DNA of 64,000 nucleotides from Candidatus Woesearchaeota archaeon (lineage in GTDB: Archaea > Nanobdellota > Nanobdellia > Pacearchaeales > GW2011-AR1): assembly GCA_964410025.1 (NCBI GenBank), contig CAYPFA010000001.1, positions 223,401 through 287,400 of the forward strand, read 5' to 3'. The position numbers and the translations under genes were made by a program. Below the pieces are notes generated by a model. It was given only the letters and a program-made list of their open reading frames with translations. It made no database searches and had not been told where the DNA came from. Below, one piece after another: positions 15,990 through 52,582 of this stretch (its first letter is position 1; each line of letters opens with the position of its first letter).

Positions 15990-16124
15990 AATATCGCCGG
16001 AGTGCCTGGCACGGTGAGCAATTCGCTTTTGCCTTGAAAATTTTAAAATTCAAAACCGCAAATGCAAATTGCGAATAAGAGATGCGCCTAGTGCTGTAAG
16101 AGAAGAAAAAATAGAATAAAATAT
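15951..16124. repeat. Perfect 44-bp direct repeat (15951-15994 and 16081-16124) flanking an 86-bp insert
   Basis: gatgcgcctagtgctgtaagagaagaaaaaatagaataaaatat occurs twice. The first copy is the last 13 codons, the stop and 5 nt after it of the HerA-like gene. Confidence 0.9.
16015..16077. mobile_element. Small hairpin-forming insert, copy 1 of a two-copy family (MITE-like; mobility not proven)
   Basis: Left end tgagcaattcgcttttgc and right end cgcaaatgcaaattgcgaata are identical to 24959-24976 and 25009-25029. The ends are imperfect inverted repeats (ATTCGCtTTTGC / rc ATTCGCaaTTTGC). Confidence 0.5.
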
Positions 16125-41705: not shown

Positions 41706-41789
41706 ACACTCAAAGAATATAAATGTTTTACTTTAATAAAATAACCTCCTATAAACAACCTAACAAGACTTTATTAAAAACTCACAACT

Positions 41790-41852
41790 CGCACAACGAA
41801 GTTGTGCGCATAATAAAATTTATTTTGCAACACAAATTCAAAAGCAAAATTA
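41790..41852. ncRNA. Double-hairpin element, copy G of a three-copy family (strand and function unknown)
   Basis: CGCACAAC-gaa-GTTGTGCG, then CATAATAAAA, then ATTTTGC-15 nt-GCAAAAT. Same architecture as 44103-44151 and 52447-52494. Confidence 0.45.
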
Positions 41853-41894
41853 ACAACTTCTTTAAAAGAAAATCTAAATCCTATTATAAAGAAC

Positions 41895-43891: not shown

Positions 43892-44102
43892 AAAAACTAT
43901 ACAAAAATTCCCTTTAAAAACCTTAGCATTTAACCACTATAAAGTTACACTAAAATAAATTAATAAAACACAAATCTGGGAAGCCCCATAAACTTCCCAA
44001 ATCTGTAATGCATCATCCTCGAGTGATTTTGATATTTTTAATTTATCTTTTATTTTCTTAATTACATCTACCTGTTATCAAGCCTCATCATGCTATCAAA
44101 TC

Positions 44103-44151
44103 GCGTGCGGAGCACGCACATAATCAAATTGATTTTGTGAAACAAAATCAA
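44103..44151. ncRNA. Double-hairpin element, copy E
   Basis: GCGTGC-gga-GCACGC, a, CATAATCAAA, TTGATTTTGT-gaa-ACAAAATCAA. Lies 10 nt beyond the cdc48 stop. Confidence 0.45.
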
Positions 44152-44160
44152 CCATTGCGT

Positions 44161-46516
<2,356 letters not shown>

Positions 46517-50643: not shown

Positions 50644-51175
50644 CTATTTCAAATCTTCTATAAACTTCCCACAACCCGCCAACCTTTTTTAACAAACTAA
50701 GATTATCCAATTTCATTTCATATTTTGGAACTGGCAAAGACTGCAAATAATCCCAAATTCCATCAAAACTTTCCTTACTATTTCCATAGGAAATTGTTAA
50801 ATGCGGATGAAATTCCACATCGTGTTCTCCTAAAACAACCTCAGGAAAAACTTTTATTTCTTCAAGAATATCCCTTTGAATTTGCAAAGCTTCTTTAGAA
50901 AAATCCGTATTCAAAAATGCAACATATCTTCTAAAATCTCCAAATCCCTTAACAGAAATTTTTGCTTGCTTTTGTTTTTTAGCAAACTCTTCAATAGCTT
51001 TTTCTAATTTTTCAGGATTATCCATAAAAAATGGAGATTTCAAAGTTGCATGCACCGGGCGAGGCTGTTCAATCATATAATTCTCACCAAATTTCGGTCC
51101 AACTTCACCAACCAATTTAGAAACATATTCATCAACTTCCTTGCTAGGCAAATAAACTAAAACATATCTACCCAT
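50624..51175 (-). CDS. 2H phosphoesterase (LigT / 2'-5' RNA ligase family)
   Basis: Two HxT/S motifs, HATLKSPF and HLTISYG, with appropriate spacing. Confidence 0.7.
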   Translation of the reverse strand: MGRYVLVYLPSKEVDEYVSKLVGEVGPKFGENYMIEQPRPVHATLKSPFFMDNPEKLEKAIEEFAKKQKQAKISVKGFGDFRRYVAFLNTDFSKEALQIQRDILEEIKVFPEVVLGEHDVEFHPHLTISYGNSKESFDGIWDYLQSLPVPKYEMKLDNLSLLKKVGGLWEVYRRFEIGGGKNE

Positions 51176-52334
51176 TATTCACTTCCTCCTCTACTATTTC
51201 TTCTGCATCCGTTTCCATCTCCAGCTCAGCAGCCGCATCAGTATATTTCTGCCCGTCTAGACTAACGCCCGCGTGTGCCTCTTCAAACTTCGCGTACTCA
51301 TCTTTCTCATTCAACAAACATTTCTCACTCAACTTAGTAATCTTCGCCAAAAAAAATCCATCGCTATCGTTATCTTGCGGATAAAGTCTTACACAATTTT
51401 TAAGTTCTTCATCAAACTTTTCTCCTTCCCAATCAATAACTCCACTTCTTGTTTTCAATGGCAATTCCACTTTTTCAATTCTAATATCAAAATTTTGTTT
51501 CAAATAATTAACAACCATCTCATCCTCTTCTGGCCCCAAAGTGCAAGTTGAATAAATCATTTCTCCACCAACTCTCAAAAGTTTTAATGCTTCAGAAGCA
51601 AGCCTCCTCTGAACTCTAGACAAACCTCTGATAAAATTCATATTCCACATCTCAAATGTCTTTGGAGACTTCCTCAGCGTTCCTTCACCAGAGCATGGAG
51701 CATCAACTAAAATTTTATCAAACTGAATTTTAATTTCCCGCGCCCACTTTAAACAAAAAGAAACTCCTTCCATTCTTGTAATCATTGTATTCATAACTCC
51801 AGACTTCTCTAGATTCGCACTCAAAATCCTAATTCTTCCAATATTAATTTCATTCGCAATAATAGTCCCTTTGTTTCCCATTATCGCCGCAGCCTGAGTA
51901 GTTTTACTTCCAGGAGATGCACACAAATCCAAAAACAATTCATTTTCCATTGGTTGCAAAACAAACATTGGCAACATTGATGAAATTTCCTGCACATAAA
52001 AATAACCTAATAAATGTTCAATAGACTTACCAAGCTCTCCGGGTTTCAAATTACTTTCCCTTAGAACAATCATCGCCTCGGGAAATTCCCTATACGGCTG
52101 TCTGATTTTCCAGCCATGCTCCTCAAGTCTTTTCTTTAACTCCTCTGGAGAAATTTTCAAAGTGTTACATCTAATAAAATCAGGTGAAGAAGTATAAGAA
52201 ATCTCAAAAAACTTTTTAGTATCTTCTTTTCCAATTAACTTTTCCATTCTTCCCACAAACTCTGGCTTAGGCTGAAATCTCTCCATCAATTTTTCCTTGT
52301 TTGTTTTCTTCACATAATTCTTATCAAAGTCCAT
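51168..52334 (-). CDS. NOL1/NOP2/Sun-family RNA (cytosine-C5) methyltransferase
   Basis: DLCASPGSKT, DAPCSGEG, YSTCT motifs. Confidence 0.85.
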   Translation of the reverse strand: MDFDKNYVKKTNKEKLMERFQPKPEFVGRMEKLIGKEDTKKFFEISYTSSPDFIRCNTLKISPEELKKRLEEHGWKIRQPYREFPEAMIVLRESNLKPGELGKSIEHLLGYFYVQEISSMLPMFVLQPMENELFLDLCASPGSKTTQAAAIMGNKGTIIANEINIGRIRILSANLEKSGVMNTMITRMEGVSFCLKWAREIKIQFDKILVDAPCSGEGTLRKSPKTFEMWNMNFIRGLSRVQRRLASEALKLLRVGGEMIYSTCTLGPEEDEMVVNYLKQNFDIRIEKVELPLKTRSGVIDWEGEKFDEELKNCVRLYPQDNDSDGFFLAKITKLSEKCLLNEKDEYAKFEEAHAGVSLDGQKYTDAAAELEMETDAEEIVEEEVNNG

Positions 52335-52446
52335 AAAATAGAAACCAAAAAGAGCAATTTAAATCTTGTTATTGGCAAATTCTTAGAAAAATAATTATAA
52401 TTAAAAATTTGTACCCAACTATTAAAAAAACAGATTCTTACTAACT

Positions 52447-52494
52447 CGAGTGCGGGGCACTCGCATAATCAAAAAAAATTTGCGAAGCAAATTT
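52447..52494. ncRNA. Double-hairpin element, copy F
   Basis: CGAGTGC-ggg-GCACTCG, CATAATCAAA, AAATTTGC-gaa-GCAAATTT. A TATA-like actattaaaaaaac sits ~23 nt upstream on the plus strand. Confidence 0.45.
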
Positions 52495-52582
52495 GACAAT
52501 TCCCTTTAAAAAACCCTATCGTCATAATATAAACAAACAATATCACAACAATCCTTTTAAATAATACTATTATAATAATTTT

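Follow-up and report, generated by a model that had tools for sequence, protein, structure and literature searches.

Three intergenic double hairpins that differ in the sequence of their stems and keep the pairing raise the question of what such a family is: a structured RNA, a DNA hairpin recognised by a protein or nuclease, or a repeat of some other kind. The window, a stretch of 64,000 nucleotides (C1:223401-287400), belongs to an archaeal genome assembly (G000) of 830 kb in 6 contigs, with 33% G+C and 88% completeness. An earlier note on it had described three copies, G, E and F, and on re-reading of the sequence their hairpins and CATAAT motifs were found where they had been placed, all in the same orientation, on the plus strand (Table 1). 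Plus-strand folding reproduced hairpin 1 in all folds, with z-scores of -2.2 to -3.6, and hairpin 2 as claimed in G, E and F; a further copy, H, adopted an alternative 3' fold. The spacer CATAAT(C/A)AAA, held to be nearly invariant, is so among G, E, F and one more copy, but not family-wide, where the consensus is AATAATCAAA with variants such as AAGTTAAAA. The hairpin at 15998-16012 (GAGTGC-ctg-GCAC), which had been called related, lacks the conserved flanks and spacer and is matched neither by the covariance model nor by the nhmmer profile described below; it is evidently a different element.

The neighbouring genes are those named in the note (tfs at G, cdc48 at E and divergent gene starts at F), as judged by Pfam and the ORF list. 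Copy G has its core 34 nt to the left of the TFS stop codon, and the stop codon of cdc48 abuts copy E, 2 nt away. Copy E lacks boxes A and B, as it is directly followed by that stop codon (44161-44163, minus strand). Copy F is located between the divergent RsmB/F-type methyltransferase gene and a 105-aa ORF. Genes in this organism are almost all leaderless, with a BRE/TATA consensus ccGAAAccTTTAAAAA at -36 to -22 from the ATG, and a matrix made from this consensus predicts flanking start codons with single-base accuracy; real promoters have a median score of 9.7. By this matrix the methyltransferase has its own promoter between the gene and copy F, with a minus-strand score of 8.2 and a correctly predicted start codon. 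The TATA-like box reported upstream of F on the plus strand is also present, at a score of 8.6, and its predicted start falls 9 nt into the core match, at the first bases of hairpin 1.

Table 1. Copies G, E and F in the window and their neighbouring features (positions are those of the window; "model" denotes the covariance model built from four copies)
Feature	Position	Strand	Basis
Copy G, full unit	41779..41893	+	model core match C1:265184-265260 (window 41784-41860), 69.8 bits; nhmmer envelope C1:265179-265293
Copy G, 5' flank actcACAACTC	41780-41790	+	sequence
Copy G, hairpin 1, CGCACAAC-gaa-GTTGTGCG	41790-41808	+	sequence
Copy G, spacer CATAATAAAA, starting with CATAAT	from 41809	+	sequence
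Copy G, hairpin 2, long-loop variant	41822-41850	+	sequence
Copy G, AACAACTTC	41852-41860	+	sequence
Copy G, box A, A-rich	41861-41868	+	sequence
Copy G, box B, TATA-like, cctattataaa	41880-41890	+	sequence
TFS gene, 102 aa	41895..42203	-	Pfam Zn_ribbon_TFIIS, E = 2.4e-17; ORF list
Copy E, right side truncated	44092..44172	+	model match C1:267496-267558 (window 44096-44158), 77.8 bits; nhmmer envelope C1:267492-267572
Copy E, 5' flank TCAAATC, degenerate		+	sequence
Copy E, hairpin 1	44103-44117	+	sequence
Copy E, spacer CATAATCAAA, CATAAT at 44119	44119-44128	+	sequence
Copy E, hairpin 2	44129-44151	+	sequence
Copy E, AACCATTGC	ends 44158	+	sequence
cdc48 gene, 788 aa	44161..46527	-	Pfam CDC48_N and two AAA domains
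RsmB/F-type methyltransferase gene, left divergent neighbour of F	51168..52334	-	Pfam Methyltr_RsmB-F, E = 1.6e-44
TATA-like box upstream of copy F, ctattaaaaaaaca	52418..52431	+	organism-specific promoter matrix, score 8.6
Copy F, full unit	52438..52536	+	model match C1:275841-275903 (window 52441-52503), 79.7 bits; nhmmer envelope
Copy F, 5' flank CTAACTC		+	sequence
Copy F, hairpin 1	52447-52463	+	sequence
Copy F, spacer CATAATCAAA, CATAAT at 52464	52464-52473	+	sequence
Copy F, hairpin 2	52476-52494	+	sequence
Copy F, GACAATTCC	52495-52503	+	sequence
Copy F, box A, ctttaaaaaa	52504-52513	+	sequence

The covariance-model search that the note had proposed was run with a model from four copies, the long hairpin-2 loop of G being trimmed for alignment only; the fourth seed, on contig C2, came from a simple genome scan for CATAAT plus a hairpin. 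Twenty-six matches were obtained in the genome at E<0.02, every one on the plus strand. An nhmmer profile of the extended copies added one full copy, for a total of 27, and three fragments, again all on the plus strand. The copies are confined to C1:83-351k and C2:11-55k, on two adjoining contigs, and neither search found any on C3-C6 or on the remainder of C2. All are intergenic or touch stop codons, and two pairs are adjacent on the same strand (C2:10973/11118 and C2:36397/36696). Immediately before the copy at C1:332949 there is a run of N, a scaffold gap (C1:~332,900), and further copies may hide in gaps. The CATAAT-plus-hairpin scan also picked up a second small repeat family, consisting of TCGGATTTGAAA, a hairpin and TTCATAATA, at C3:104324(-), C3:104716(-) and C1:170462(-).

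The full unit is about 110 nt long and non-coding. In most copies it opens with a 5' flank (G)TnACTC-ACAACTC, also written GTnACTC-ACAACTC, followed by the GC-rich hairpin 1 of 6-8 bp, the inter-hairpin spacer and the AT-rich hairpin 2 of 7-11 bp, whose loop is either 3 nt or, as in G, 15-17 nt of the GAAAACAAAATTCAAAA type. After hairpin 2 come (G)ACAATTCC and box A CTTAAAAAAA; in the consensus this part reads GACAATTCC followed by an A-rich, promoter-like tail. Next comes GGTTRCC or, in its place, a TATA-like CCTATTATAAA, 17-20 nt downstream of TTCC. The hairpins are thus framed by fixed segments of single-stranded type, GTnACTC-ACAACTC, the spacer consensus and TTGACAATTCC, and TTGACAAT is nearly invariant among copies. 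Hairpin-1 and hairpin-2 types are re-assorted among the copies as a mosaic, and no solo hairpin-1 module was found in the genome beyond the known copies. In the partial copy at C2:31741-31793, hairpin 2 is collapsed to CAAATTTG, a typical palindrome deletion, and C1:182026-182062 and C1:322904-322945 are solo 3' modules (TTTGACAATTTCC...), one of them right behind a full copy. Such partial copies show what appears to be modular decay and tandem accretion.

To what extent the stems are constrained was assessed in 33 aligned copies, 28 from this genome (one a truncated duplicate row) and 5 from its sister species (G005). The alignment was fitted to the covariance model, which favours structure, but the difference from the controls is very large: pairing is seen in 94.4% of stem cells, versus 69.7% in shuffles, and 0 of 500 shuffles reached as high a value. 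Sixteen of the 17 pairs are changed on both sides, in 125 cells, and a one-sided change occurs in 4 cells only. The covariation score is 0.556, compared with 0.177 for shuffled alignments and at most 0.081 with the partners slid. The compensatory stem changes with pairing kept that the note had seen in three copies are therefore strongly supported. Between copies, hairpin-1 stems have only ~45% identity and the unpaired segments 68%, so that sequence is constrained in the flanks and nothing but pairing in the stems.

Pairing of this kind would suit an RNA. The units could be small structured RNAs or cis-acting RNA modules, read from the plus strand as hairpin 1, AAUAAUCAAA, hairpin 2 and ACAAUUCC, and acting through the hairpins and the CA-rich single-stranded segments. 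Besides the very strong covariation, the loops of this genome point that way: on the plus strand they are mostly of a G...A form (GAA, GGA, GAAA, GAGCA), reminiscent of GNRA-type loops. Direct hairpin calls gave 422 Watson-Crick pairs, 4 G-T, 1 A-C and 3 others; on the plus strand G-T thus outnumbers A-C by 4 to 1. A promoter-like box also stands just upstream of about half of the copies, that of F scoring best, with a start predicted within a few bases of the 5' end. The distance of these boxes is, however, not fixed, no plus-strand terminator follows the unit, and wobble amounts to ~1% of cells. In the sister species, five copies share an identical 11-bp stem CAAATTTTTTC with the loops GAA, GAA, TTC, TTC and TCC, and hairpin-1 loops are AAA or TTT. 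The flipped loops are exact reverse complements, which indicates that the loop was inverted between the palindrome arms, a DNA recombination event; a loop-dependent RNA should not tolerate TTC, TCC or TTT on identical stems. The G...A loops and the excess of G-T favour the plus strand as the active one, as RNA or as a single DNA strand, and the flipped loops weaken this argument; for the same reason GNA triloops were dropped as proof of a plus-strand DNA hairpin function.

The note could not assign the hairpins to a known RNA family, and Rfam 15 does no better: at gathering scores the whole window yields 4 tRNAs only, and over G, E and F there is no match even at E<=1. A C/D-box or H/ACA guide RNA was rejected, as there are no C/D boxes, the stems are simple and perfect without a pocket, and Rfam gives no match. 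Minus-strand mini-ORFs from the ATG in the reverse complement of CATAAT (peptides MRTTSLCEL, MCVLRTRF..., MRVPRTRV... and MHATPLREF...) were discarded too, their conservation not going beyond that imposed by the hairpins. The uniform chromosomal orientation is likewise unexpected for independent small RNA genes, and most genomes of the genus, as well as 149 other genera, lack the family. An RNA function is for these reasons unlikely. Of the two possibilities left by the note, a structured RNA or a recognised DNA hairpin, the preserved pairing agrees with both, and the scarcity of wobble, the loop flip-flop, the co-orientation, the patchy distribution and the silence of Rfam lean to the DNA option. 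Near-absent wobble and flip/flop loops point to stems that probably behave as DNA palindromes rather than as selected RNA.

Parts of the unit nevertheless resemble signals that the host can read. Box A (GACAATTCC-CTTAAAAA) passes the plus-strand promoter matrix in 11 of 26 copies, versus ~2 by chance. On the minus strand it reads T7, and 18 of the 27 copies lie behind a minus-strand gene, at 2-50 nt from its stop codon. Hairpin 2 contributes T4-T6 runs in either direction, although T-runs of >=5 occur in only ~10 of 26 hairpin-2 arms. A minus-strand small RNA starting at box B (TTTATAATAGG) and ended by the T-runs was considered and rejected, the promoter matrix being passed in 4 of 26 copies, versus 4.1 by chance. 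As far as such signals can be read from its letters, the unit can terminate transcription that arrives from genes on both sides and act as a weak promoter directed outwards. As to whether copies mark operon ends, a check suggested in the note, 18 of 27 follow minus-strand stop codons and 3 lie between divergent starts.

These signals could mean that the unit is primarily a cis-regulatory device of the host, in which a promoter is joined to a transcription terminator or insulator, and that it was selected at the borders of genes and is not selfish in origin. The T7 of box A followed by a T-rich hairpin 2 behind so many minus-strand genes would suit such a cassette, as would the promoter scores of box A, the retention of the 3' module by an orthologous copy described below, and the occupation of junctions, which is highest where genes converge (6/48, versus 5-6% in other types). 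Its orientation is, however, independent of gene direction, and between divergent starts there is nothing to terminate. A copy is present at only ~7% of the junctions of its domain and at none in the other 380 kb. Flanking genes have canonical promoters of their own outside the core, relatives with 81-83% identical cdc48 do without the element, and T-runs are as infrequent as noted above. A primarily regulatory cassette of the host is quite unlikely; terminator and promoter use may explain the retention of copies, not their uniform orientation.

That orientation is the most regular feature of the family. All 27 copies are on the plus strand (two-sided binomial ~1.5e-8), and they occupy all four configurations of flanking genes: 10 of 161 junctions of the type <- <-, 4 of 76 of the type -> ->, 6 of 48 convergent and 3 of 47 divergent ones. 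Gene direction therefore does not set the orientation of the element. For the same reason it does not suffice to regard the copies as plain 3'-end hairpins of the minus-strand mRNAs next to them, as copies are seen in all four contexts, divergent starts included.

The orientation matches the strand skew of the chromosome. GC3 skew, taken at third codon positions and corrected for the coding-strand effect, is -0.4 to -0.5 strand-wide along C1 and C2:0-60k and ~0 from C2:60k. The sole clear Orc1/Cdc6 gene of the genome is at C2:62911-63204. Synteny with a 317-kb contig of the sister species (C5) indicates that C1 continues into C2, and the copies thus fill one continuous, strongly skewed domain beginning at orc1. 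Their density is highest beside orc1, with 13 copies in 45 kb (C2:11-55k), and all are on the C-rich strand. The copies of the sister species, in regions of negative skew, are likewise all on the plus, C-rich strand, even those at 95971 and 100391, whose segment has the opposite orientation in this genome. The leading strand is usually G-rich. With this rule and forks moving leftward from orc1, the written strand of the element would be the nascent lagging strand, or the leading-strand template. No mirror-oriented copies were found in the remaining ~380 kb with the four-copy model and nhmmer, and a model of replication-coupled insertion does not explain their lack.

At the orc1 locus (C2:~60,000) the skew drops abruptly from ~-0.5 to ~0, without a change of sign; C2:60-198k, C3 and C5 are not skewed, and C4 and C6 are at ~+0.2. 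A giant minus-strand ORF of ~3980 aa lies at C2:12971-24913, and the ~30-kb stretch that holds it (the end of C1 and C2:1-26k) measures only 2.7 kb in the sister species.

A polar element of chromosome architecture, such as a site of strand-specific priming or loading, or a polar signal to the fork, in the replication of the skewed half, with function selecting the orientation, would agree with the strict co-orientation on the C-rich strand in two species, with the confinement to the domain starting at orc1 and the crowding beside that gene, and with the near-invariance of the TTGACAAT segment, but is very unlikely, since absence from most of the genus and from all other genera searched means that it cannot be essential, no other region holds mirror copies, and the spacing is irregular and clustered.

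How the family is distributed among relatives was examined at several depths. It was found in this genus only, in this genome, in the sister species with 5-6 copies and as one fragment in a third genome (G006). The search of related genomes proposed in the note thus did yield further copies, in these two relatives and in no other genome searched; the four-copy model had no match in five other genomes of the genus. A second covariance model, built from the 33 copies and run against one genome for each of the 150 genera of the family, matched this genome and the sister species, and gave nothing in the 149 other genera. Among 160 cdc48 loci from metagenomes and species representatives, with a best cdc48 identity of 81-83%, no family member was found. 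Conservation downstream of cdc48 was rejected as a candidate, having produced weak matches (E = 0.35) in the opposite orientation. Viral contigs held no match to the conserved 22-mer, and a search of the literature found no description of such repeats in Pacearchaeota.

The two species are well separated, with 59% mean protein identity, and copies differ between them in both directions. Three junctions occupied here, at 83046, 147545 and 265184 (copy G), have no element in the sister species, whose copies at 95971 and 100391 have no counterpart in this genome. At C1:147545 the copy is flanked on each side by a complete promoter that was predicted correctly; in the sister species the orthologous spacer, 125 nt long, is element-free. 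One orthologous pair, C1:190582 here and C5:190806 there, stands behind an 89%-identical 733-aa gene, and its 3' module and adjoining flank are almost identical; a second pair (350163/304317) is possibly orthologous. There is, as the comparison of these loci suggests, both gain and loss and long-term retention of copies between the sister species. The unpaired parts are 68% identical within the genome and 64% between species; the family is apparently not the product of a recent burst, as the copies have diverged.

A mobilising enzyme was sought in this genome, which is 88% complete. Six-frame family searches found no Y1 HUH transposase (PF01797), TnpB, IS110, DDE_Tnp_1 or reverse transcriptase, and tblastn with the TnpA of the sister species gave no match below E = 2.9. 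Tyrosine recombinases are present throughout the genus, three such genes being found here, and reverse transcriptase and DDE genes occur in genomes without the repeat. The marks of classic transposition were not seen either: there is no target-site duplication, the longest flank repeats averaging 6.3 nt versus 6.1 nt in mismatched controls, and there are no terminal inverted repeats, the ends ACTCACAACTC and GACAATTCC not being complementary.

The sister species carries an intact IS200/IS605-type element (C1:18200-18900; locus L219:5230-5900) with a TnpA of 142 aa and the HUH motif HVHLF, the only Y1 transposase in the genus. Both of its ends read GGATACCTC and are followed by hairpins of different sequence; its contig, of 22.8 kb, also encodes an integrase as well as a Cas4-like nuclease and has the look of a mobile element. 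A link to this insertion sequence was rejected, as its ends have no similarity to the repeat (nhmmer, blastn) and this genome has no copy of it.

On balance, G, E and F are somewhat more probably than otherwise copies of a genus-specific, strand-polarised, modular DNA repeat that is REP/BIME-like (or MITE-like without a transposase) and has in part been co-opted for gene-end and gene-start signals. Such a repeat would spread, or would once have spread, through a strand-specific step coupled to replication, possibly by way of a single-stranded intermediate handled by a putative trans-acting protein that reads the fixed segments and the shape of the hairpins. Parts of it may later have been taken into use by host genes. 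The T-tracts of the minus strand would act as terminators right after stop codons, and on the plus strand box A, which resembles the BRE/TATA promoter of the organism, could provide starts; this use would explain the long keeping of some copies. Against the repeat reading stand the missing mobilising enzyme and classic transposon marks, the divergence of the copies and the lack of mirror copies. A function selected by the host would likewise agree with a consensus that is conserved between species whose proteins are 59% identical, and with the conservation of one orthologous copy.

A bolder form of the repeat reading, which we regard as doubtful, is that the units are copied by a strand-specific, replication-coupled mechanism without any known transposase class, in which an enzyme of the host, or one not yet recognised, would act at the fork on single-stranded DNA that has folded, and that they are markers of the extreme strand asymmetry in one chromosome half and perhaps help to shape it. 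If true, the units would represent a new type of mobile or architectural DNA in archaea. The family in any case deserves attention. DPANN genomes are very small, with little non-coding DNA, and this one nevertheless keeps a structured repeat in 27 copies. Strict chromosomal polarity, restriction to the skewed domain from orc1 and the lack of a recognisable transposase set it apart from described prokaryotic repeats. It offers a handle on replication and strand asymmetry in uncultured archaea, and on the spread of repeats without a known enzyme, and its terminator- and promoter-like signals matter for the annotation of gene ends and starts in these leaderless genomes.

Several known systems share features with the family. 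Integron attC sites conserve structure and not sequence between fixed short boxes and are co-oriented, and for both kinds of unit recognition of a folded single strand is plausible. An attC site, however, follows promoterless cassettes and consists of one imperfect hairpin with extrahelical bases, whereas the present unit has two separate perfect hairpins and adjoins housekeeping genes in both orientations with their own promoters. DDE-type MITEs differ in that the unit has no target duplication, its ends are not inverted repeats, and neither DDE_Tnp_1 nor IS110 is found in the genome. The flip/flop inversions of chloroplast non-coding hairpins and parvovirus terminal repeats provide a parallel for loops read both ways on an unchanged stem (GAA/TTC, GGA/TCC, AAA/TTT). 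Those hairpins stay at one fixed locus or at the ends of a genome and do not form a family of dispersed repeats.

Elements of the IS200/IS605 group and the related PATEs of haloarchaea come nearer. They too lack terminal inverted repeats and target duplications and have hairpins near their ends. In IS608 and ISDra2 the orientation is tied to the replication strand, and here the polarity matches the skew in both species, with all copies of this genome in one skewed domain. They differ in relying on a TnpA supplied in trans and on hairpins that match the ends of its insertion sequence; this genome has neither TnpA nor TnpB, and the insertion sequence of the sister species has unrelated ends; moreover, the two hairpins of the present unit are unlike each other and vary between copies, and no mirror-oriented copies occupy the other replichore.

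REP elements and the BIMEs or REPINs built from them are, like this family, short extragenic palindromes with a fixed short flank beside the hairpin, here GTnACTC-ACAACTC. They also share mosaic, modular combinations, tens of copies per genome and a lineage-specific distribution. REP elements serve secondarily as transcript-end signals. The differences are that no RAYT or Y1 gene was detected here in the six-frame PF01797 search; that inverted doublets never occur, all 27 full and the partial copies being on the plus strand; and that the stems are perfect and very diverse, where REP stems are imperfect and conserved within subfamilies, and the host is an archaeon. The family thus departs from each of REP/RAYT, PATE, MITE and attC at a defining feature, and in its behaviour it is closest to REP/BIME.
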